64,000 bases of DNA from Anaerovoracaceae bacterium. Its GTDB lineage: Bacteria > Bacillota > Clostridia > Peptostreptococcales > Anaerovoracaceae. Made by a program: the position numbers and the translations under genes. The stretch is taken from the NCBI GenBank assembly GCA_045113935.1, contig JBGUJM010000026.1:3771-67770 (forward strand), read 5' to 3'. The notes under the pieces are model-generated. The model was not told the origin of the DNA and did not search any database. It was given only the letters and a program-made list of their open reading frames with translations. Shown piece by piece: positions 8,060-61,416 of this stretch. Position 1 is the stretch's first letter. Every line of letters begins with the position of its first letter.

Positions 8060-8706
8060 TAATCGGCGGCGCGGATATAGGTAATTATGAACATGCCCGA
8101 AGCTTTATTAATGATGATGACTATGTCATATACTGTGATTGCGGCCTGAAGCATATGGTACCGCTCGGAAAGAAGCCTTCTCTTATAATTGGTGATTTCG
8201 ATTCACACAGTGAGCCCGGACTGGATGTAGAGACTATCGTGCTTCCCGTTGCCAAAGATGATACGGACACAATGTACGCAGTCAGGACGGGAATAGAAAG
8301 AGGGTTCCGTGATTTTGTATTGCTGGGAGTCATCGGCGGCAGGACAGATCACACGCTTGTCAATATATACGCGCTCTTCTATCTCGATACACATGGATGC
8401 AAGGCTATTGCGGCAGATGATTATTCTGAAATGGAAGTCATTTCCTCCCGGCGCGGATCTGCAGACGGAGTGCAGACTTGCGTACCGGGGACCGCGTATG
8501 TAACAGAAGAGTATCCGTTTTTCTCGCTCGTCAGCATGACCGGAACAGCCCGGGGAGTCACGATCAGAGGAGCAAAATTCTGTATTGAAGACGCAGAGAT
8601 CACAAGTGAGTACCAGTATGCGACGAGTAATGAGGTTTTACCGGGACACAAGGCAGAAATATCGGTCAGAGACGGCCGGCTGCTTCTGATCAGGGACATA
8701 AAATGA
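8044..8706 (+). CDS. thiN: Thiamine diphosphokinase
   Basis: 'CVIIGGADIG', 'IIGDFDS', 'KDDTDTMYAV' and 'GVIGGRTDHTL' are TPK catalytic-domain motifs. The ATG at 8044 overlaps the trmO end by 16 nt. Confidence 0.8.
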   Translation: MDKCVIIGGADIGNYEHARSFINDDDYVIYCDCGLKHMVPLGKKPSLIIGDFDSHSEPGLDVETIVLPVAKDDTDTMYAVRTGIERGFRDFVLLGVIGGRTDHTLVNIYALFYLDTHGCKAIAADDYSEMEVISSRRGSADGVQTCVPGTAYVTEEYPFFSLVSMTGTARGVTIRGAKFCIEDAEITSEYQYATSNEVLPGHKAEISVRDGRLLLIRDIK

Positions 8707-10514
8707 TGCTGAAAAATGACAGGATGCTGACAAAACTATTCATAAGGCTGCTGCCGGTCCAGGTACTACTGGTCGCGGCTCAGGCACTCAACTCGATCGT
8801 GGACGGTACGGTTGCCGGCAGGTGCATATCTTCCGGCACGGTAGGTATCTTCGGCCTGTACTACTCGATGCTGTGTATTTATGATGCCGTGACGGGCGTG
8901 ATCCTGGGAGGAACTGCAGTGCTGTGCGGGCGAAGCATGGGATGCGGTGACACTGCCCGTACAAGCAGAATTTTTTCGCTCAACATCACGATCACCACTG
9001 CTGCAGGAGCAGTACTGGCGCTTCTGAGTGTTCTGATGCCGGGAACGATAGCGGATATTCTGGGCGCAAGCCCGGAACTGAAAGGGGACCTGTCTGAGTA
9101 CATAAGGTGGTACTCGATAGGCATCATTCCTCTGCTGCTCGGCAAGCAGATATCGGCATTTCTGGAGATGGAAAGGCAGAGCAGAAGGGGGCTTACCGGG
9201 ATATTCTTCATGGCTGCCACTAACTGCACGCTGGATGTCTTTCTGGTATATGTGATGCATATGGGAGTACGGGGACTGGCGCTGGCCACAGCGACCGCTT
9301 CGTGGGTATATCTTCTTATTCTCATACCATATTACTTCACTGACAGAGCTCAGCTGAAATACAGCTGGACGTCGATTGACTGGAGCGATCTGCTGCCAAT
9401 GTTCCGGATCGGAGCTCCGGGAGCGCTGCTTGTTACGTGTCTTGCTTTCAGAGGAATAATAATCAACAGACTGCTGCTGCATTACAGCGGGCAGGATGGG
9501 CTTTCAGCCATGTCCGCTTTCAATCTGCTGGCAGGTCTCTTCCTTGCATATGCAATGGGAGTGGGAGCTGTCGTACGTATGCTCAGCAGCGTGTTCATGG
9601 GAGAGGAAGACCGCGATTCAATAAAAGCTCTGATGAGAATCGCATGGAAAAAGATGGTCCCGGCCTCTGCGGCTCTGACTGTATTCATCATTCTTCTCGC
9701 AAAACCTATCGCGTCGCTTTTTTTCAAGGATACTTCTTCTGAGGTGTTCCGGCTGGCTGTACAGCTCTTCGTGATCTATGCGCTGTGCATCCCTGCGGTG
9801 GTTGCCATCCAGGTGATCGTTAACTATTTTCAGGCCACAGGGCACAATACGATCGTCAACATCATGTCTGTTTTCGACGGCATCATCTCCATGGTCATAC
9901 CTTCGATGATTCTTGCTCCGGTAATGGGAGCGACCGGTGTCTGGCTGGCTAACCCGATAGGAATGGCACTGACACTTCTTCTGGTGCCTGCTTACGCTGT
10001 TTTCCGTTGTAAACACTTCCCGCGTACATCAGATGAGTGGCTCATGCTTCCGGATGACTTCGGTGTGCCTTATGAGGACAGGCTGGATATTACTGTGCAC
10101 GGACTGGATGAAGTTGTGCAGACAGCCGAAAGAGTTCAGACTTTCTGCGAAAAGCACGGCACAGATCCGCGGACTGCCCATTTCTCGGCATTATGTATGG
10201 AGGAGATGTCCGCCAATGTCATCAAACACGGATTCAATAAGGATAATAAGAAGCATGATGTCAATGTCAGGGCTGTCTGGAAGAGCGGAGATGTGATGCT
10301 GCGGATCAAAGATGACTGCGTTCCGTTTGACCCGAAGGAAAGGGCAGAGCAGGTCTGCGGAGATGATCCGGTGAGGAATCTCGGAGTCAGAGTGGTCACC
10401 AGACTGGCCGATGAGATCACATATCAGAATATGCTCGGACTGAATGTGCTGACCATAAGACTATCCGGAAAAAAACAAGAATTCACCGGCAGTCTTCTTG
10501 ACACGGCAGAGTGA
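8703..10514 (+). CDS. MATE-family efflux transporter fused to a C-terminal SpoIIAB/RsbW-like HATPase domain
   Basis: The first ~450 aa are polytopic, with 12 predicted TM and a MATE-like 'LNSIVDGTVAGR' start. The C-terminal ~135 aa read 'CMEEMSANVIKHG...MLRIKDDCVPFDP...NLGVRVVTRLADEITY', an N-box and G-box pattern like anti-sigma-factor kinases. The start overlaps the thiN stop (ATGA). Confidence 0.75.
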   Translation: MMLKNDRMLTKLFIRLLPVQVLLVAAQALNSIVDGTVAGRCISSGTVGIFGLYYSMLCIYDAVTGVILGGTAVLCGRSMGCGDTARTSRIFSLNITITTAAGAVLALLSVLMPGTIADILGASPELKGDLSEYIRWYSIGIIPLLLGKQISAFLEMERQSRRGLTGIFFMAATNCTLDVFLVYVMHMGVRGLALATATASWVYLLILIPYYFTDRAQLKYSWTSIDWSDLLPMFRIGAPGALLVTCLAFRGIIINRLLLHYSGQDGLSAMSAFNLLAGLFLAYAMGVGAVVRMLSSVFMGEEDRDSIKALMRIAWKKMVPASAALTVFIILLAKPIASLFFKDTSSEVFRLAVQLFVIYALCIPAVVAIQVIVNYFQATGHNTIVNIMSVFDGIISMVIPSMILAPVMGATGVWLANPIGMALTLLLVPAYAVFRCKHFPRTSDEWLMLPDDFGVPYEDRLDITVHGLDEVVQTAERVQTFCEKHGTDPRTAHFSALCMEEMSANVIKHGFNKDNKKHDVNVRAVWKSGDVMLRIKDDCVPFDPKERAEQVCGDDPVRNLGVRVVTRLADEITYQNMLGLNVLTIRLSGKKQEFTGSLLDTAE

Positions 10515-21972: not shown

Positions 21973-22515
21973 ATGGCAAAATGGGTATGTAGCGTATGCG
22001 GATATGTTCATGAAGGCGACACACCACCGGAAAGATGTCCACAGTGCAAGGTTCCTGCAGAGAAGTTCATCAAGCAGGAGAGCGAGATGACATGGGCAGC
22101 TGAGCATGTTGTAGGAGTAGCACAGGGGGTTGATCCTGAGATCATCGAGGATCTGAGAGCTAACTTCAACGGTGAGTGCTCAGAGGTAGGTATGTATCTT
22201 GCAATGTCAAGAGTTGCTTACAGAGAAGGTTATCCTGAGATCGGCGAGTACTGGAAGACAGCTGCTTTCGAAGAAGCTGAGCACGCAGCTAAGTTCGCGG
22301 AGCTTCTCGGCGAGGTCGTAACAGACAGCACCAAGAAGAATCTTGAGATGAGAGTAGAGGCTGAGAACGGCGCTACACTCGGCAAGACAATGCTTGCTAA
22401 GAAGGCTAAAGAGCAGGGACTCGACGCTATCCATGACACAGTTCACGAGATGGCAAGAGACGAGGCAAGACACGGCAAGGCATTTGCAGGACTTCTGAAG
22501 AGATACTTCGGCTAA
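21973..22515 (+). CDS. rbr: Reverse rubrerythrin (N-terminal rubredoxin-like Cys4 domain plus diiron four-helix bundle)
   Basis: '[25 protein letters not shown]' followed by the ExxH diiron motifs 'EEAEHAAKF' and '[11 protein letters not shown]'. The ATG at 21973 follows AGAGGAG. Confidence 0.85.
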
Positions 22516-22782
22516 GCAACAAGGGGGACCGCCTGCGCAGCAGGTGGTGGATGCCTTATTGCAACAACTAATCAGAAAGGCTGAAATACTGACAATCTGA
22601 AACGATTGGAATAGAGGTTGGGGATTAAACTCTGACCTCTTTTCTTATGTGAGAATGTCACTGACAGCAGTGGTGCGGCAGCAGGGAACGTTTTTACCGC
22701 AAGGATAATGGAACGGTCTCCTGCCTTGTGATAAACTTGTAACATTAACAAAGAAGGCACACTGCCTGAGAAAGGAGAAAAC

Positions 22783-23169
22783 ATGGCAAATTCAGATCTG
22801 GCAAAATTCCGTGAATTACTTAATACAGATGCAGAATTTCAGGAAAAACTGAGAGAGGCTGCAGCGTCATACACAGGAGAACCGGATGAAAGGGCGGTCT
22901 TTGATAACCTGCTTGTACCGCTGGCGAAAGAATACGGACTTTCGGCAACGTTCGAAGAGTTTGCAGAATACCTGGGAACTTTCATGAGCGGCGGAGAGAT
23001 GGAACTTTCTGAAGATGAGCTGGCAATGGTTGCCGGAGGAAAAGGGGCCTGCCTCGTTGTCGGAGGAAGTGACGGGCCTGAAGTTGACGCAAATACCTAT
23101 TCCGAAGGTGGAGAAGCGCATGCCTGCTATTATATCGGAGTCGGTATTGCAATACCGTTTGGTGATTAA
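22783..23169 (+). CDS. Nif11-type leader peptide precursor with a double-glycine cleavage motif (RiPP/bacteriocin precursor candidate)
   Basis: 'MANSDLAKFRELLNTDAEFQEKLREAA...AKEYGLSATFEEFAEYL...ELSEDELAMVAGG' follows the Nif11-leader pattern (TIGR03798-like). A 42-aa core follows: 'KGACLVVGGSDGPEVDANTYSEGGEAHACYYIGVGIAIPFGD'. The RBS is AAAGGAGAAAAC-ATG. Confidence 0.7.
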   Translation: MANSDLAKFRELLNTDAEFQEKLREAAASYTGEPDERAVFDNLLVPLAKEYGLSATFEEFAEYLGTFMSGGEMELSEDELAMVAGGKGACLVVGGSDGPEVDANTYSEGGEAHACYYIGVGIAIPFGD

Positions 23170-23358
23170 CAAGAAAAGCGGTGTGTAAAAGCGCCCTTTG
23201 GAGATGTATTAATGGCTGAAATATCAGCAATCTGAAAGACACATTGTGGTATCAAAGACTTTATAAAGTGGTACCAAAGATGATGAAAAGACGTAATAAA
23301 GATGTTATAATGATGCTTGAAAGTAGCTATAGTTTTCAAAGGGAAAAAGGACTCAAAT

Positions 23359-23481
23359 ATGAAGAATAACAAAGATTTTCCACTGATGGCATTTACTTTC
23401 TTTTATGCTGTTGCCATCTATACCATGTGTATAGGGTTTTATTTTTGGGATAAAAACAACACTTTAAAAAAAGAAAAGTAG
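23359..23481 (+). CDS. 40-aa single-TM small ORF, possible immunity or accessory peptide (hypothetical)
   Basis: It is below the ORF-track length cutoff. The peptide is MKNNKDFPLMAFTFFYAVAIYTMCIGFYFWDKNNTLKKEK. AAAGGA lies 7 nt upstream, an extended -10 TGTTATAAT sits at 23303-23311, and a terminator follows at 23540. Confidence 0.35.
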   Translation: MKNNKDFPLMAFTFFYAVAIYTMCIGFYFWDKNNTLKKEK

Positions 23482-23539
23482 AGACACAAAGAGGCGTTTG
23501 CCGGTCTGCTCACACTCACTGAGTATCAAGGGTAAAGGA

Positions 23540-23575
23540 AGAGACTATCAACACCACGATAGTCTCTTTTCTTGT
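23540..23575 (+). terminator. Rho-independent terminator
   Basis: 11-bp stem aagagactatc / gatagtctctt with an 8-nt loop, followed by a T-rich tract (ttcttgt). Confidence 0.75.
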
Positions 23576-23679
23576 ATAAGGTTTTTTGGTGATGCAGAAT
23601 ATATCCGGGCGGTGTTATAATCGCAAAAGAAAGGAGTACATCTCTTATGCCGGGCATTGCTTAGGAGACACTACGGTTA

Positions 23680-24183
23680 ATGAAAGATATTTTTTACTCG
23701 GTTTTGTTCCTGATCATTGAGGTAGGGGCTTTTATGTTCTTCGGGACGCATCATGCGCTGACCGGAGGTTTCACCATCATTTTGCTGATTCTGATTGCCA
23801 AAAACATATTCGTTCTGTATACCTCATTGAAAAAGGATAAGCCTCAGGAGGCTGAAATACAGCAGGCTGCCGGTACACCTTCTGCCGGAGCACCGTTATC
23901 TGATCAGACTGCTTTTTCTGATGGATCCCTGGCGAGAATAGAAAGAGCGCTTGCCGAAGCGACCATAGCCAATCCACTGTTTCGGTACACAGCTTCCGCA
24001 GAAAGGCTCACCGCAAGCTATGGATATGGCGAAGGAATGGATGTTTACTCAGACGGAACGCTTTACATCTGTGAATATCACAGAGAACGTTCGAATGACT
24101 TGAAATATGAGGACAGCGAAGAAGCTGCAGTCAGCCGTTTTATAAGAGGATGTCAGGTCGGGATGGTCAGGATGACCAGATGA
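23680..24183 (+). CDS. Hypothetical membrane protein with two N-terminal TM segments
   Basis: 167-aa ORF, 'VLFLIIEVGAFMFFG' / 'FTIILLILIAKNIFVLY', with no recognisable family. An extended -10 TGTTATAAT lies at 23613-23621. Confidence 0.5.
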   Translation: MKDIFYSVLFLIIEVGAFMFFGTHHALTGGFTIILLILIAKNIFVLYTSLKKDKPQEAEIQQAAGTPSAGAPLSDQTAFSDGSLARIERALAEATIANPLFRYTASAERLTASYGYGEGMDVYSDGTLYICEYHRERSNDLKYEDSEEAAVSRFIRGCQVGMVRMTR

Positions 24184-24405
24184 ATACCGGCCAACTGTCC
24201 AAGTATTTATCCCTTTTTAAATCGCTCCATAATTACCTGTAATTGTCAGATTCTTAACGGGCAAAAAAACGCCAAAATACTTCATTGTGACGATATTGTG
24301 ATTAAAAATATGCTATAATGAGACCAATAATTTATGAATGGGATCTGAGTCTTGAGATCCTGTCATATTGTGTATTGATAGGTTAATGCAGAAGGGAAGG
24401 AAGTT

Positions 24406-25680
24406 ATGACGAAAGGAATGAAAAAATTATTATCTCCTATCCTGCTGATCAGTCTTTTGGTTGGGTTGATGCTGGTGCTTACCACAACATTCTCGCTTGC
24501 AGAATCCGAAGCTGATAAAAAGGCTGTGAATGGCGTGGAGAACAGCAGTGATGAATCTACCGAAGTGAATGATCAGATATCTGAGGATGAAGAGATTCAG
24601 CTGGAAAAGGTAGCTAAAGAAGCAAAAAATGTAGTGTCAGATGATGAAGACTATATACGTCTCTCTTCTCCGGCTCCTAATTCTATACATTATATTGGAG
24701 ACTACATTTATTTTAAGTTTCAGTGCTATGATACTTGGCAAAGTTATTACACCACCCCAACGATCGTTATTACTGATAGCAGCGGGGATATTATAGATTC
24801 CTTAAAAAGTAATACCGTTGTTTCTGTCAATGCCTGGAGTTCATTTAACTGGAAAATGGAATTATCTTCTTATGACTACAGTCCGGGAACATATTACGTT
24901 TACCTGTTTAATATTCCAAGCAGCAGCAGCGGAACATATGTAGATGGCTGGTCCGATTGGGATGTACCGGCGGTTAGAGTTCCGATCAGTGTCAGGAGGA
25001 ATACTTCTCCTCTTGGTGTAAAATCATTATGGGCATCAAAACATATGACCGGAAAAGTATTATTCAAGTGGTCAGCAAAAGATAACAGGGCGCCTAAGGG
25101 ATGGAGAATCAAGTACAGAACTCGAGTGATCGGCGGATCCGGCAGCTGGGGTTACTGGAAGTATGGTTCTACTGCCGGCGACGTAATGCAGGCAGAGATT
25201 TCTGTATGGACCAATAGTCCGAATGGCGCAGTAGTTGAGGTGCATGCTCAGGCAGAAGGTGACAGTACCTGGTCCACAGGAATCATCACTTGCCCTGCAG
25301 GCTGCAAGTATCAGGCTATGAAGACGACCCATGTTTATAATGTGGCTGCTAAGAAGAGATTTGCGGAGAGGACTGTAAGCGGCAGCGCAGTAAAACATAT
25401 TACGATCAACATGAAGGTCGGTCAGAAGTTAAAGGTCAAACCTAGCTATGATTATCCTGTAAAGAATTATGTGAGCAGGCCGAGACTTTATCCTACCCAT
25501 ATGCTGTATGATATCGGCAACAAATCAATGATATCCATTTATAAGCCTAATGGAGCAAAATATTCAGGCGGTATCATCGACGGAACTGCTACTATCAAAG
25601 CAACCAAGAGAGGAAAGACAACGATCATCTTCAGGTCTCCGAACGGAAGAACCGTGATTGGAGATGTAACAATCAGATAA
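24406..25680 (+). CDS. Secreted protein with FN3-like and C-terminal Big_2-like Ig domains (hypothetical)
   Basis: The signal peptide is 'KKLLSPILLISLLVGLMLVLTTTFSLAES'. 'LFKWSAKDNRAPKGWRIKY' is FN3-like, and 'GTATIKATKRGKTTIIF..GDVTI' is Big_2-like. The RBS is GAAGGGAAGGAAG. Confidence 0.6.
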   Translation: MTKGMKKLLSPILLISLLVGLMLVLTTTFSLAESEADKKAVNGVENSSDESTEVNDQISEDEEIQLEKVAKEAKNVVSDDEDYIRLSSPAPNSIHYIGDYIYFKFQCYDTWQSYYTTPTIVITDSSGDIIDSLKSNTVVSVNAWSSFNWKMELSSYDYSPGTYYVYLFNIPSSSSGTYVDGWSDWDVPAVRVPISVRRNTSPLGVKSLWASKHMTGKVLFKWSAKDNRAPKGWRIKYRTRVIGGSGSWGYWKYGSTAGDVMQAEISVWTNSPNGAVVEVHAQAEGDSTWSTGIITCPAGCKYQAMKTTHVYNVAAKKRFAERTVSGSAVKHITINMKVGQKLKVKPSYDYPVKNYVSRPRLYPTHMLYDIGNKSMISIYKPNGAKYSGGIIDGTATIKATKRGKTTIIFRSPNGRTVIGDVTIR

Positions 25681-25737
25681 CGCAGATACAGGCGTTCAGA
25701 TCCTGCAAAACAAGAACCCTCCTTTATAAACCTGAGT

Positions 25738-25935
25738 TTATAGAGGAGGGTCTTCGTTTATCTTGTCAGCGGTGTTTTCCTCACTGGTATCTCCGGCATC
25801 CTTTGGCTTTTTAGAATATTTACGGACCTGATATTCATGGAGGATGATGACTCCGATGAGCAGCAGTAAAAGTTTCCACCAGTTATGTGCGATCCATGTA
25901 ATTATTAATGTTGCTAAAAGGACTAACATTGTCAC
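25738..25935 (-). CDS. Small membrane protein (hypothetical)
   Basis: 65 aa with two hydrophobic helices and an acidic tail. It has a strong RBS (AAGGTGGTG) and a TTACTA-17-TATAAT promoter-like element upstream on the minus strand. Confidence 0.5.
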   Translation of the reverse strand: MTMLVLLATLIITWIAHNWWKLLLLLIGVIILHEYQVRKYSKKPKDAGDTSEENTADKINEDPPL

Positions 25936-26003
25936 ACCACCTTATCTTTTTTGTAATTATACTATATCAGTGTGTCCTTAGTAATCTTTTCAGTTCATTT
26001 TAT

Positions 26004-26053
26004 CTTGACTTCATTTATATAAGGTGATATAAAAATGATATCATAATGATATC
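26004..26053 (+). promoter_or_regulatory. Sigma-70-type promoter (TTGACT-17-TGnTATAAA) overlapped by TGATAT(CA) operator-like repeats
   Basis: TTGACT lies at 26004-26009 and TATAAA at 26027-26032, preceded by TG. TGATAT starts at 26024, 26035 and 26046, an 11-bp phasing. The last two copies are the full 8-bp palindrome TGATATCA. Confidence 0.6.
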
Positions 26054-26122
26054 ACAATCAACTGGCGTGATCAGAATTGAACATGCCGATTGCGAGCCTT
26101 ATATTATACGGAGGAAAATACA

Positions 26123-27148
26123 ATGGAAAGGGAATACGTTAATGTTGAGCAGAAGGTGCTCAATCCGCCGAGCGGCATACTGATGCTGGCCATACTGATC
26201 CTGGCAAGCATTTTCTCTCTTGTCGGGTTCGTCATCGGACTCGCGGCAGGGAGCTTTGGTCTGATCCTTATATGCATTTTGCTGTGGATCATACTGCCGT
26301 TTATGTTTGCCGGACTCAGAAGTGTCAGACCGAATGAAGCGCTTGTGCTTACGCTTTTCGGCAAGTATTACGGCACTATCATGAAGCCGGGATATTTCTT
26401 TGTGAACCCGTTTGCAAGATACAACAATCCGGCTTATGAAGCACAGGCAGCTGCGGAAGTCGCTGAGAAGGCAGAGATGCTTACGGACTCATCCAAAGTC
26501 AAGTTCAGATCCGGCAAGTCAACAGCGAACAGGGCAAGGAAGACTGTCTCACTCAAGCGCTCAACGCTTGATAACGGAACACAGAAAGTCAATGACGCAC
26601 TCGGTAATCCTGTCATCATCGGAGCTGTTGTCCTCTGGCATGTGGAAGACCCGACCAAAGCTGTATTCAATGTCGAGAATTATACAGAATTCCTGTCGAT
26701 CCAGACAGATTCGACGATCAGAAATACCGCAAGGCTGTACCCGTACGATGTATTCGATGACGATGAGGAAGAGAATGACGGCAAGGCAGAGCAGACACTG
26801 AGAGGCAGTTCCCAGGAGATCGCAGCGAAGATGAAAGTCGAGCTGGCTGAGAAGGTCGCTTTTGCAGGTCTCGTGATTGAGGAAGTACGCATCACGCATC
26901 TTTCCTACGCGGAAGAGATCGCTGCCGCAATGCTTCAGAGGCAGCAGGCTTCAGCGATCATCGCCGCGAGAACCAAGATCGTTGATGGAGCTGTCAGCAT
27001 GGTCAAGATGGCGATCGACAAACTGGGTGAGGATGATATAGTTATGCTCGATGAGGAGCGCAAAGCGCAGATGGTATCCAATCTTCTCGTAGTTCTCTGC
27101 GGCAATAAGGATGCGCAGCCTGTAGTTAACAGCGGATCGGTATATTAG
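26123..27148 (+). CDS. SPFH/Band-7 domain membrane protein
   Basis: N-terminal TM hairpin followed by 'RPNEALVLTLFGKY..PGYFFVNPF' and 'VEEVRITHLSYAEEIAAAMLQRQQA', which is the SPFH core plus coiled coil. The ATG at 26123 follows GGAGGAAAA. Confidence 0.8.
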   Translation: MEREYVNVEQKVLNPPSGILMLAILILASIFSLVGFVIGLAAGSFGLILICILLWIILPFMFAGLRSVRPNEALVLTLFGKYYGTIMKPGYFFVNPFARYNNPAYEAQAAAEVAEKAEMLTDSSKVKFRSGKSTANRARKTVSLKRSTLDNGTQKVNDALGNPVIIGAVVLWHVEDPTKAVFNVENYTEFLSIQTDSTIRNTARLYPYDVFDDDEEENDGKAEQTLRGSSQEIAAKMKVELAEKVAFAGLVIEEVRITHLSYAEEIAAAMLQRQQASAIIAARTKIVDGAVSMVKMAIDKLGEDDIVMLDEERKAQMVSNLLVVLCGNKDAQPVVNSGSVY

Positions 27149-27150
27149 AA

Positions 27151-27459
27151 ATGAGCAGCGAACCCGGACTGACAAAACCGAATAAGACTGAAGAACAGCT
27201 TCTCAGAAGAGAAGAGCAGCTTCTGGAACGCAAGGCGAAGCTGGACGCACTTGAGCAGCAGCTTCGTGAGAAGGAGAAGGAACTCAAGGCACGGGATGCA
27301 AAACGCAAGCAGATCATCCTCAGGCTGCCCGAGTCGCTTTGGCGTGACATTGCCAGATGGGCGGATGAAGATTTCAGATCCATCAACAGTCAGATCGAAT
27401 ACATTCTCACGAAAAACGTAAGAGAAAAATACAGAAAAGAAGGAAACAGCAATAAATGA
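27151..27459 (+). CDS. Arc/MetJ-type ribbon-helix-helix DNA-binding protein with an N-terminal coiled coil
   Basis: The C-terminal 'KQIILRLPESLWRDIARWADEDFRSINSQIEYILTKNV' fits the RHH (Arc) pattern. It starts 3 nt after the SPFH stop and overlaps the arginase start (ATGA). Confidence 0.65.
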   Translation: MSSEPGLTKPNKTEEQLLRREEQLLERKAKLDALEQQLREKEKELKARDAKRKQIILRLPESLWRDIARWADEDFRSINSQIEYILTKNVREKYRKEGNSNK

Positions 27460-28370
27460 GCAATCTGAATGATAAGAGAAACATAGACATTATCGGTGTA
27501 CAGATCGACTTCGGGGCATCACAGAAAGGAGTAGCGATGGGACCGCTTGCCATCAGGTATGCCGGGCTCAAAGCTTCACTGAGACAGATGGGATACAGCG
27601 TCCGGGATAAGGGAGATATCGTACCTCCTGAAGACGGAATGAGCCTTCGTAATATGATCCGGTTCGAGCAGGTCAACGCGACCAACAGACGGCTCTATGA
27701 GGAAGTGACAGAGACTCTCAGCGAAGGACATTTTCCGCTGGTGCTGGGAGGAGACCACAGTATCGCAGCCGGAAGTGTCTCAGCGATCGCCAAGCACTAT
27801 GAAGATCAGGGCGAGATCGGGATCATATGGATCGATGCTCACGGCGACTGGAATGATGACAAATCAACGATCAGCGGCAACATGCACGGCATGCCTTACT
27901 CGGCAGTCTGCGGCTGGGGTCCTTCAAGCATGGTGGATTTCGGGCAGACACCGCACTTTGTTCCGACCTCACACTGTGTCCAGGTGGCAGGTCATGACTT
28001 TGACATGGCGGAAGCTGCAAGAATGAAAAAGGCAGGTATGACCGTTTTCCCGATGGGTGAAGTGGACAGACGGGGCATGCATGATGTGATGCAGGATGCC
28101 ATACGCATTGCGAGTGAAGGAACTGTAGGGATACATTTGAGTTTTGATGTCGATGCGATCACGCCGGAATACGCTCCCGGCACGGGCACACCTGTACCGA
28201 ACGGTATCACGGCGAGGGAAGCCTTCCTGGCCGTTGAGATGGTAGCGGCTTCGGGCAAACTCATCAGCATGGATCTTGTGGAAGTAAACCCTATTCTGGA
28301 TGAGAGAAACAAGACGGGGCATCTGGCATCAGACCTGATCCAGCTGGCTCTGGGTAAGAAGGTGTATTGA
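27456..28370 (+). CDS. rocF: Arginase
   Basis: Ureohydrolase Mn-site motifs 'LVLGGDHSIA', 'IWIDAHGDWN' and 'HLSFDVDAI'. 'VEVNPILDERNKTG' closely parallels Bacillus RocF. Confidence 0.85.
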   Translation: MSNLNDKRNIDIIGVQIDFGASQKGVAMGPLAIRYAGLKASLRQMGYSVRDKGDIVPPEDGMSLRNMIRFEQVNATNRRLYEEVTETLSEGHFPLVLGGDHSIAAGSVSAIAKHYEDQGEIGIIWIDAHGDWNDDKSTISGNMHGMPYSAVCGWGPSSMVDFGQTPHFVPTSHCVQVAGHDFDMAEAARMKKAGMTVFPMGEVDRRGMHDVMQDAIRIASEGTVGIHLSFDVDAITPEYAPGTGTPVPNGITAREAFLAVEMVAASGKLISMDLVEVNPILDERNKTGHLASDLIQLALGKKVY

Positions 28371-59691: not shown

Positions 59692-61416
59692 ATGATGCTC
59701 AGATCACTGTTTCAATTTTTTAAACCGCATAAAAAGCTGTTTATGATCGATATGTTCTGTGCTGTTATGGTAGCAGCCATAGACCTCGCATTTCCTCTCG
59801 TATCAAGGCATGCGATGTATGATATGCTGCCTGACAAGGCATACGGCCCGTTTTTCGCGCTGATGCTGTGCGTGGCATGCTTTTACGTGCTGCGTTCTAT
59901 AGGCCAGTATCTGATGACATATATCGGGCATCTGTTCGGCGTATATGTAGAGGCGGATATAAGGGCGGCATTGTTCAGGCATCTGCAGGAACTGGACTTT
60001 GAATTCTATGACAAGAACCGTACAGGCAAGCTTATGAGCAGACTGACAGGCGATCTGTTTGAGATCACTGAACTCGCTCACCATGGTCCGGAAGATCTGC
60101 TGATATCCGTTCTGACCATAACCGGCTCTCTCTGCTTCATGTTTTATATGGAGTGGAGACTCGCGCTCGTCGTTGCAGTCCTCATACCGGTATTCGTTCT
60201 TGTTGTAATGAAGAGGCGCAGGAGCATGTCTTCCGCATCGACAGAGGTCAAGAGAAAACTCGCGGGCATCAACGCGGATATCGAGACGAGTCTCAGCGGA
60301 ATGAAGACCTCCAAGGCTTTTGCCAATGAAGAGGTCGAGCAGGACAGATTCACACATTCCAATGACTCCTATATTGAAGCCAGAAGGGTCTATTTCAAGG
60401 CAATGGGCACTTTCTTCGCCACCCAGGAATTCTTCATGTGTATCATGCCTGTCGTAGTGATTGCGTTCGGCGGATACCTGATCATGAAGGGGACACTCAA
60501 CTATATTGATCTGATCACTTTTATGCTGTTCGTCAACGCGTTCGTATCGCCGGTCCGCAAACTTGCACAGTTCGCAGAGATCTTTACGAACGGTATGGCG
60601 GGACTGCGAAGGTTCAACGAGATTATGGACATGGATCCTGTTGTCGTTGAAGATCCGGATGCAAAACCGATACAGGTGACACGCGGAGACATAGATGTCA
60701 ATGATATATCTTTTTCATATGATGAGAGTGCAGAGGTCATCGATCATCTGGATCTTCACATAGCGGCTGGCGAGACTGTGGCGATCGTCGGCCCGTCCGG
60801 AGGGGGCAAAAGCACCCTGTGTCAGCTGATTCCGAGATTTTATGATGTGACTGACGGCAGCATCCTTATAGACGGACAGGATATCAGGCACGTGACCAAG
60901 ACATCCATCAGGGAAAACATCGGCATTGTCCAGCAGGATGTATTCATTTTCGCCGACTCCATACTTGAGAATATACGCTATGGCAGACCGGGCGCGACAT
61001 ATGATGATGTAGTTGAAGCAGCCAGAAAGGCAGAGATCTATGACGATATCATGGCGCTGCCGGATCAGTTCAGCACTTATGTAGGCGAGCGCGGTGCCAA
61101 GCTGTCGGGAGGGCAGAAGCAGCGCCTCTCCATAGCAAGAATATTCCTCAAAGATCCTAAGATCCTGATACTCGATGAAGCGACTTCGGCTCTCGATACG
61201 GTCACGGAACAGCGAATACAGAGCAGTTTTGACGAACTGGCACGGGGCAGGACATCTCTGGTCATCGCTCACAGGCTGGCCACAGTCAGGAATGCCGACA
61301 GGATAATAGTGATCGAAGACGGAAGGATAACCGAGTCGGGTACACACGAAGAACTGCTCGCAAAAGGCGGTGAGTACGCGAAACTATATAAAACACAGAA
61401 GCTCAGCGGCGAATAA
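59692..61416 (+). CDS. ABC exporter, fused permease/ATPase (MsbA/type-1 exporter-like)
   Basis: Six N-terminal TM segments, Walker A 'GPSGGGKST', 'LSGGQKQRLSIAR' and 'ILILDEATSALD'. There is no N-terminal C39 peptidase domain. Confidence 0.88.
   Translation: MMLRSLFQFFKPHKKLFMIDMFCAVMVAAIDLAFPLVSRHAMYDMLPDKAYGPFFALMLCVACFYVLRSIGQYLMTYIGHLFGVYVEADIRAALFRHLQELDFEFYDKNRTGKLMSRLTGDLFEITELAHHGPEDLLISVLTITGSLCFMFYMEWRLALVVAVLIPVFVLVVMKRRRSMSSASTEVKRKLAGINADIETSLSGMKTSKAFANEEVEQDRFTHSNDSYIEARRVYFKAMGTFFATQEFFMCIMPVVVIAFGGYLIMKGTLNYIDLITFMLFVNAFVSPVRKLAQFAEIFTNGMAGLRRFNEIMDMDPVVVEDPDAKPIQVTRGDIDVNDISFSYDESAEVIDHLDLHIAAGETVAIVGPSGGGKSTLCQLIPRFYDVTDGSILIDGQDIRHVTKTSIRENIGIVQQDVFIFADSILENIRYGRPGATYDDVVEAARKAEIYDDIMALPDQFSTYVGERGAKLSGGQKQRLSIARIFLKDPKILILDEATSALDTVTEQRIQSSFDELARGRTSLVIAHRLATVRNADRIIVIEDGRITESGTHEELLAKGGEYAKLYKTQKLSGE

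Follow-up and report, generated by a model that had tools for sequence, protein, structure and literature searches.

The precursor gene and its locus

We analyzed a 64,000-nucleotide stretch of DNA from an Anaerovoracaceae bacterium (contig JBGUJM010000026.1; hereafter the window) and, within it, a 128-amino-acid open reading frame (ORF) that an earlier note had read as a peptide precursor with a Nif11-pattern leader ending in a double-glycine (GG) site. The ORF, its letters and the GG box were all found, as was the core that follows the leader, which has 42 residues, is Gly-rich, contains 2 Cys and has a second GG inside, just as the note had described it. The gene and its 5' flank comprise the following features:

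22783-23169, + strand: precursor ORF, 128 amino acids, ATG start; its letters match those quoted in the earlier note
22783-23040, + strand: leader peptide, residues 1-86; a predicted Nif11-like helical domain, then the double-glycine recognition/cleavage motif ELSEDELAMVAGG
23041-23169, + strand: core peptide, residues 87-128, with the stop codon; KGACLVVGGSDGPEVDANTYSEGGEAHACYYIGVGIAIPFGD
22729-22737, + strand: extended -10 element TGaTAAACT, approximately 45 nt 5' of the start codon
22613-22640, + strand: terminator hairpin of the upstream rubrerythrin gene (terminator scan; fold -18.4 kcal/mol, z = -4.4)

The GG cleavage junction of the precursor reads ELSEDELAMVAGG followed directly by KG, and the leader carries hydrophobic residues (V at -4, L at -7, and L at -12) in the canonical double-glycine-leader pattern. 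An AAGGAG Shine-Dalgarno sequence (22772-22777) lies 5 nt ahead of the ATG, and a conserved block, GGAAC-n-GTCTC (22710-22721), is located just 5' of the extended -10. From its match to the consensus, the element at 22729-22737 may serve as the promoter of the gene; a TGnTAnAAT-like block occurs at the same position across the upstream regions of 12 aligned family loci. The hairpin at 22613-22640 marks the 5' boundary of the precursor's own transcription unit. In addition, a block (G/C)AAC-n-GTC(T/G)C was observed at the -35 position of several family promoters (window 22710-22737; loci L025, L022, L026, L007, and L001). Since an extracytoplasmic function (ECF) sigma factor is encoded in the exporter loci described below, the scattered precursors might make up an ECF-sigma regulon.

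When 44 ORFs of the window, among them all non-nested ones of at least 300 amino acids, were scanned against Pfam, only housekeeping functions came up. These comprise a pyrimidine operon, carbamoyl-phosphate synthase, rubrerythrin, a DtxR-type repressor, a Band-7 protein, arginase, NrdD with an NrdG-like activase, ScpA, a branched-chain amino-acid ATP-binding cassette (ABC) importer, MetK, TypA (91% identical to proteins of Mogibacterium sp. metagenome-assembled genomes [MAGs] and 85% to Mobilibacterium timonense TypA), and FeoB. The TypA identities place the host in the Anaerovoracaceae, as a Mogibacterium-like bacterium. The sole full ABC exporter of the window (59692-61416) begins directly with its membrane domain and is without a C39 domain. 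When the window was searched by tblastn with a relative's peptidase-containing ABC transporter (PCAT) and second ABC subunit, only generic ABC genes were returned, and searches with the relative's HlyD protein and with the radical S-adenosylmethionine (SAM)/SPASM maturase gave no match. A second Nif11 or GG-leader ORF was not found in the window by tblastn and a six-frame motif scan, and the Pfam scans showed neither a LanM-sized or LanM-like ORF nor a YcaO gene. The precursor is therefore an orphan within the 64-kb window. The statement of the earlier note that no LanM, cyclodehydratase, radical SAM or C39-ABC gene lies nearby was thus borne out across the window by Pfam and tblastn.

Leader and core of the precursor family

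Against the model TIGR03798 (leader_Nif11), the window protein gave a significant, full-length match (E = 4.9e-6, 26.7 bits, profile positions 1-68 of 68 on residues 1-86), which stays under the curated cut-off of 32.3 bits; its match to Pfam Nif11 reached 19.4 bits (cut-off 23.8 bits). The hidden Markov model check that had been proposed for this leader thus spoke for Nif11 membership in significance and coverage and fell short of it in curated score. Homologous relatives exceed the TIGR03798 cut-off (37.8 bits in L016, 35.5 bits for L017:7909, and 34.4 bits for L052:1160), so the subgroup of the window protein is a divergent branch just under the operational threshold. Bacteriocin models matched the GG box alone (PF10439, Bacteriocin_IIc, 13.5 bits over residues 73-95; gathering cut-off 27.1 bits), and a short-leader class II bacteriocin was ruled out on this score and on the leader length of 86 residues. 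An AlphaFold2 model built on the family alignment placed helices at residues 2-15, 17-29, 36-50, 57-69, and 77-83, with a predicted local distance difference test (pLDDT) score of approximately 70 over residues 2-83. No fold was predicted for the core (residues 87-128, pLDDT approximately 33; mean of the whole model 53). The leader is thus predicted to form a four- to five-helix Nif11-like domain.

A word-indexed search returned 27 homologues at 50-98% identity, and an exhaustive profile search returned 531 family cluster representatives, 180 of them at E<1e-10. We found no description of this family in the literature on Nif11 with rumen or on Nif11 with radical SAM/SPASM. Among the matches listed, its hosts are two Anaerovoracaceae MAGs, Anaerovibrio lipolyticus, Anaerovibrio sp. 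RM50, a Selenomonadaceae MAG, and a Lachnospiraceae MAG; there are usually several copies per genome, on separate contigs (2 to approximately 8 per genome or MAG among these matches), and tandem arrays of 2-4 copies are frequent. The relatives listed from these genomes reach an identity of 58% at most. The window protein itself was found in identical form in three independent metagenome assemblies and as a 98% variant in another strain.

Among 28 aligned homologues, leader positions P46, Y51-G-L-S54, E59, F60, E79, and L80 are invariant, and AGG84-86 is kept in at least 90% of family sequences, with divergence beginning after GG-K. Compared with the window protein, homologues share 64-69% of residues in their leaders, against 27-39% in their cores. 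When the gene was compared with those of two relatives at 71-79% identity, the ratios of synonymous to nonsynonymous codon changes were 15:18 and 20:19 in the leader, and 8:20 and 5:21 in the core. These contrasts indicate that the leader is under purifying selection and that the core evolves much faster. At the DNA level, similarity to distant paralogues ends at window position 23045, directly past the GG-KG codons. The PCAT protease LahT150 cuts Nif11 leaders at GG and needs only the last ~13 leader residues (Bobeica et al. 2019, PMC6363468). Because the conserved leader region is far longer than that, a second, leader-binding enzyme can be argued for.

Two alternatives bear on this pattern. 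That the gene is a non-functional relic, an orphan copy left unprocessed after the genome lost exporter and maturase, as the lack of partner genes in 64 kb and the repeat-bracketed, insertion-like appearance of the gene might suggest, is very unlikely: the ORF, the Shine-Dalgarno sequence and the promoter block are intact, the protein recurs in the assemblies and strain mentioned above, the leader is under purifying selection relative to the 71-79% relatives, and dispersed copies are the norm for the family. The other alternative is an intracellular Nif11-domain protein with a folded C-terminal domain that is not secreted. The earlier note had named a GG motif and core conserved together as a folded domain as the finding that would speak for it; instead, a nearly invariant GG motif is followed by a core that diverges and is predicted to be disordered. 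In addition, relatives are physically linked to PCAT exporters and radical SAM maturases. We therefore reject this reading on the conserved leader and the diverging, unstructured core; although Pfam Nif11 proteins of unknown function exist and the Pfam and TIGR matches are both sub-threshold, we give it next to no chance.

The core had been called unlike any recognized bacteriocin, but it is not featureless and bears the family signature C-x3-G-x-G. This motif occurs 205 times in 139 family cores versus 20.8 +/- 4.4 times in composition-preserving shuffles, an approximately tenfold enrichment; 83% of the family cores contain at least one, and most cores have three Cys. In the window core, modules of this kind stand at two places (CLVVGGS and CYYIGVG). 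The motifs C[LI]xxGGS[DN]GP and AC[AY][FY][LI]G[VI]G are also found in an Anaerovibrio subgroup, in reversed order.

Maturase and exporter genes beside relatives

At several loci, relatives of the window precursor are encoded next to a radical SAM/SPASM protein. In the Selenomonadaceae locus L016 (MAG RUG12289), three tandem family precursors are followed, 14 nt on, by a 522-amino-acid radical SAM protein with a CX2CX5CX3C SPASM motif, and the Selenomonadaceae loci L037 and L038 show the same arrangement with radical SAM proteins 84-88% identical to that of L016. An orthologue with 51% full-length identity is encoded in L049, the contig of homologue P0023, where it adjoins an orthologous B12-binding radical SAM protein. 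The leaders in L049, L052, and L053 are 54-65% identical to that of the window precursor, and L052 has four tandem precursors. On one side of the precursors, L052 and L053 encode a YcaO protein with a separate Nif11 peptide, and on the other side a B12-binding radical SAM protein (474 bits against TIGR03975, RiPP C-methyltransferase; cut-off 282; RiPP, peptide that is ribosomally synthesized and then modified post-translationally), the radical SAM/SPASM protein, an acyl carrier protein-like protein, and an acyl-AMP ligase. Finally, in the Eggerthellaceae loci L056 and L057, a 49%-identical orthologue is directly followed by a 134-amino-acid family-like precursor with the same Gly/Cys core style. 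The orthologues of the three settings are 49-55% identical to one another. That members of a single enzyme family turn up next to members of a single precursor family in three distant lineages speaks more strongly than any other observation for a functional link.

The radical SAM/SPASM family comprises 1070 proteins at E<1e-20. It scored 99 bits against the StsB sactipeptide maturase model (cut-off 625), 81 bits against nif11-class radical SAM maturase 3 (cut-off 725), and 54 bits against PapB (cut-off 340), and among solved structures the sactipeptide synthase SkfB comes nearest to it (E = 5e-17). Because the nearest characterized maturase relatives are sactipeptide synthases, thioether crosslinks appear likely.

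Three further observations concern these enzymes and their loci. The region 1160-11482 of L052 and its counterpart in L053 look like a hybrid cluster, with an acetyltransferase-like protein included, and some family members may thus be methylated and possibly acylated. The radical SAM/SPASM protein of L016 (1760-3328) has 522 amino acids versus 462 in its orthologues owing to in-frame repeated inserts: two copies of the insert TRTEALVRAQAQEAP closely follow the CX3CX2C motif, and another one, related to them, lies near the SPASM region, perhaps as an intragenic repeat or a mobile insert. P0117, a 544-amino-acid radical SAM/SPASM homologue, has a precomputed Pfam Nif11 domain; it may be a natural precursor-maturase fusion or a gene-calling merge, and in both cases it independently supports the association of Nif11 precursors with this radical SAM family.

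Exporter genes were found at 2 of the 17 genome-scan loci (among the matches listed), L009 and L017, and at none of the other fetched loci. In L009, from an Anaerovoracaceae MAG, the gene order is HlyD-like protein (TIGR03794, 244 bits, cut-off 156), PCAT (TIGR03796, 988 bits, cut-off 853; Peptidase_C39 E = 6.5e-38), second ABC subunit (TIGR03797, 811 bits, cut-off 709), ECF sigma factor, DUF7005 protein, and precursor. This three-gene transport cluster (TIGR03794/6/7) has been tied to nitrile hydratase leader peptide (NHLP) and Nif11-derived precursors, the latter forming large paralogous families whose genes often lie at some distance from those of the enzymes (Haft et al. 2010, PMC2887384). 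The MAG of L009 holds three further precursor copies on another contig, L007. A distant PCAT, which the earlier note had suggested, is thus the most likely route, as one paralogue adjoins a full exporter while three others sit elsewhere. In L017, from the Selenomonadaceae MAG RUG12289, the order is the end of ABC1, ABC2, a sigma factor, a TolC-like protein, cargo genes, a Nif11/CFI-box protein, and two family members. Since L016 and L017 are on different contigs of this MAG, a single genome can encode maturase, exporter, and other precursors at unlinked places.

The cargo genes of L017 (5959-9769) are approximately nine genes for proteins of approximately 100 amino acids with short double-glycine leaders (e.g., MANELMDKRMTEDELDNVVGG), which belong to two or three paralogous types and lie directly 3' of the NHLP-type exporter, the sigma factor, and the TolC-like gene; this region is a large island of PCAT cargo genes in a diderm Firmicute. 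In L009 (9054-12656), the precursor is followed by a 48-amino-acid transmembrane (TM) ORF, a NapH-like ferredoxin membrane protein, and a ResA-like thiol-disulfide oxidoreductase. These flanking genes, that for DUF7005 included, could serve accessory redox or immunity functions. DUF7005 was considered as a tailoring enzyme and rejected: we found no literature mention and no NCBIfam match, and it is absent from all other loci.

Set beside the observed gene anatomy, family homology, leader/core pattern, orphan position, and linkage of relatives to exporter and radical SAM/SPASM genes, the best explanation is that the window ORF is one scattered paralogue, processed in trans, within a multi-copy family of RiPP/bacteriocin precursors with Nif11 double-glycine leaders, with export by a distant PCAT and probable crosslinking by a distant radical SAM enzyme; we put the probability of this at about 0.7. 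The precursor would be transcribed from its own extended -10 promoter, and its helical Nif11-like leader would be the part that enzymes from other loci of the genome recognize in trans. By analogy with the relatives, a family-specific radical SAM/SPASM maturase would probably crosslink the Cys of the two C-x3-G-x-G modules. An NHLP/Nif11-type exporter with two ABC subunits, one of them carrying the C39 peptidase, and an HlyD-like adaptor would then cut after Gly86 and secrete the 42-residue Gly-rich peptide, presumably an antimicrobial or competition factor.

Several points weigh against this explanation. The Nif11 match of the window protein, significant as it is, is sub-threshold, and the 64-kb window contains neither exporter nor maturase. 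The radical SAM/SPASM family is under every curated NCBIfam cut-off, and no family precursor was found within 10 kb of the radical SAM homologue in L054/L055. No radical SAM gene is present in the fetched DNA of the exporter loci L009 and L017, and where linkage rests on one bin, MAG bins can mix genomes. In addition, the window subgroup has two Cys versus three in most of the family, and the ResA-like oxidoreductase near the L009 precursor fits an unmodified or disulfide product. The last points lead to the main alternative, in which a distant PCAT only cleaves and exports a class II-like bacteriocin or microcin that stays unmodified (linear, or with a single disulfide that forms outside the cell). 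L009 and L017 carry family members without a tailoring enzyme in the fetched DNA, the ResA-like and NapH-like proteins of L009 are encoded just 3' of its precursor, and the approximately nine short-leader cargo proteins of L017 look unmodified; the window subgroup, moreover, has just two Cys. The Gly-rich hydrophobic core of the window protein also recalls GxxxG-type pore-forming peptides. The radical SAM/SPASM family, however, adjoins precursors in three distant lineages, including the clade with leaders closest to that of the window precursor; long structured Nif11 leaders are typical of enzyme-recognized RiPP precursors, whereas a PCAT needs ~13 residues; and the conservation far outside the GG box suggests a second leader-binding partner. 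An unmodified product is thus unlikely, though by no means negligible. The earlier note had left the choice between a distant PCAT and an unmodified disulfide peptide open, and the recurrent radical SAM/SPASM linkage now makes the latter the weaker option.

The explanation by processing in trans agrees in part with several known systems. By function and homology, the window gene belongs with the Nif11-derived double-glycine precursors that were defined in 2010, and as an orphan paralogue it is of an expected type. With these N11P precursors (TIGR03798; Haft, Basu & Mitchell 2010, PMC2887384) it shares the long Nif11-like leader, the GG box, the variable core, and membership in a large paralogous family with copies far from the enzymes, and relatives adjoin an exporter that passes three curated cut-offs. 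It differs from them in that the window protein itself is under the TIGR03798 cut-off, that its family occurs in non-photosynthetic anaerobes of rumen and gut and not in cyanobacteria or nitrogen fixers, and that the cores, instead of being rich in Cys/Ser/Thr, have a C-x3-G-x-G scaffold in common. Prochlorosins and LahA of Lachnospiraceae C6A11, which are Nif11-leader class II lanthipeptides in which one enzyme or PCAT serves many precursors, are similar in having many precursors, scattered or in arrays, whose Nif11 leaders are nearly identical, in trans processing, and in GG cleavage by a PCAT (LahT150). In contrast to these, the enzyme linked to the family loci is a radical SAM/SPASM protein, with no LanM-like gene at the examined loci. 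No LanM was found in the annotated or scanned flanks of relatives, and with none in the window either, the lanthipeptide reading was ruled out. A substrate of the thiazole/oxazole-modified microcin or linear azol(in)e-containing peptide type was also ruled out, since the window has no YcaO and the core is Gly-rich rather than heterocyclizable; the YcaO of L052 adjoins a different Nif11 peptide.

Sactipeptides (SkfB, StsB), ranthipeptides (PapB, CteB), and the products of nif11-class maturases (e.g., TIGR04103) resemble the family in that a radical SAM/SPASM enzyme is encoded beside Cys-containing precursors. The enzyme of the relatives has a CX2CX5CX3C auxiliary-cluster motif and an N-terminal extension, and its best curated peptide-maturase match is StsB. 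It differs in that it misses all curated families widely and forms an uncharacterized clade, of which the window has no member. Class II microcins and bacteriocins (PF10439, TIGR01193 exporters) are similar in that GG cleavage is coupled to ABC export, in mature peptides that are hydrophobic, rich in Gly and contain one or two pairs of Cys, and in the HlyD and TolC-like adaptor of diderm hosts (L017). Unlike their leaders of 15-25 residues, that of the window precursor has ~86 residues and is structured according to the model, and the PF10439 match covers the GG box only.

An uncharacterized radical SAM/SPASM clade appears to have its substrates in this family, which is as such of moderate interest for RiPP discovery. 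A broader proposal, that the family comprises the substrates of a new radical SAM/SPASM-modified RiPP class with repeated C-x3-G-x-G modules behind a Nif11 leader, spread over Clostridia, Negativicutes, and Coriobacteriia, with one maturase and one exporter per genome acting on many scattered precursors, is tentative and on balance doubtful. If true, it would join prochlorosin-style combinatorial logic to radical chemistry, possibly with a new crosslink type. Dispersed Nif11 precursors have been known since 2010, and the window gene alone would not surprise a RiPP specialist. For annotation, it means that an isolated small ORF amid housekeeping genes is a genuine secreted-peptide precursor, of a sort that cluster miners of the antiSMASH or BAGEL type would miss. 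For discovery, the radical SAM/SPASM clade and the C-x3-G-x-G signature offer a concrete precursor-enzyme pair from rumen and gut anaerobes, in whose communities peptide-mediated competition is poorly charted.

The mini-ORF, the flanking repeats and other window genes

The earlier note had also pointed to a 40-codon ORF 3' of the precursor, with a Shine-Dalgarno sequence, an extended -10, and a terminator behind it, all of which are present. This mini-ORF and the repeats that bracket the precursor gene have the following positions:

23359-23481, + strand: gene for a 40-amino-acid single-TM small protein, MKNNKDFPLMAFTFFYAVAIYTMCIGFYFWDKNNTLKKEK; syntenic neighbour of the precursor
23283-23311, + strand: sigma-70-like promoter with extended -10, ATGAAA-17-TGtTATAAT (promoter scan, 10/12 matches, TG present)
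23538-23575, + strand: intrinsic terminator ending the precursor and mini-ORF unit (12-bp stem and U-tract, -18.2 kcal/mol, z = -4.78)
22576-22602, + strand: left copy of a 27-nt direct repeat bracketing the precursor gene (repeat family D2, 81% identity)
23211-23237, + strand: right copy of the 27-nt direct repeat; the 94% DNA identity between window and L025 stops at 23237

An AAGGA Shine-Dalgarno sequence lies 7 nt 5' of the mini-ORF, and no terminator between precursor and mini-ORF was found by terminator scan and fold test. In the related strain L025, a called gene of 41 amino acids occupies the place of the mini-ORF, with 66% amino-acid identity and a Shine-Dalgarno sequence in both. The DNA of the two is too diverged for a blastn alignment, and of 26 differing codons 12 are synonymous and 14 nonsynonymous. 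Judged by this conservation, the mini-ORF is a genuine conserved gene of the host locus, predicted to encode a small membrane protein. It is known only at this chromosomal locus, just 5' of a conserved gene for a membrane protein of 167/177 amino acids. Neither Pfam nor NCBIfam gave matches for the 40-, 167-, and 424-amino-acid proteins of the window.

The mini-ORF had been proposed as an immunity partner, so that precursor and mini-ORF would be a bacteriocin and immunity pair in which the 40-amino-acid TM protein protects the producer from the mature peptide. Such a pair would suit a real, conserved, single-TM ORF located directly 3' of the precursor with no terminator between, and in L025 the mini-ORF is preceded by a duplicate of the upstream region of the precursor, which could give co-regulation. 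However, homologues of the mini-ORF are absent beside other family copies in L001-L026, and none of 13 inspected loci has a comparable ORF 3' of the precursor (L009 has only the unrelated 48-amino-acid TM ORF). The mini-ORF thus tracks the chromosomal locus rather than the precursor family, and the proposal found no support. The mini-ORF also has its own promoter-like site in the window, it lies directly 5' of the conserved membrane-protein gene in L025, and the flanking repeat suggests that the precursor was inserted 5' of a pre-existing mini-ORF; we therefore consider an immunity function quite unlikely.

In L025, the whole upstream intergenic region, with terminator and promoter block, is duplicated 3' of the precursor, and the window keeps a 27-nt remnant only. 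Insertion of the precursor cassette 5' of a pre-existing mini-ORF is the simplest reading of this arrangement, and the duplicated promoter region of L025 leaves a small chance that precursor and mini-ORF are co-regulated. Identity between window and L025 is 94% over 22201-23237 and approximately 70-76% beyond (23238-27460), which places a recombination or insertion breakpoint immediately beside the precursor. Further 3', between the gene for the 167-amino-acid protein and that for arginase, the window contains approximately 3 kb that are absent from L025 and encode a 424-amino-acid secreted protein without family match, a Band-7/SPFH protein, and a 102-amino-acid protein; part of this stretch is low in GC (0.416 at 24-26 kb).

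Two other window genes encode unusual proteins. An 892-amino-acid protein (11-2689) with BspA-type leucine-rich repeats, a Listeria-Bacteroides repeat, and a weak match to an ADP-ribosyltransferase exoenzyme could be a surface or secreted toxin-like protein. A 603-amino-acid protein (8703-10514) combines a MatE (MATE efflux) membrane domain with a C-terminal HATPase_c_2 domain of the anti-sigma kinase-like type, which is an unusual fusion.

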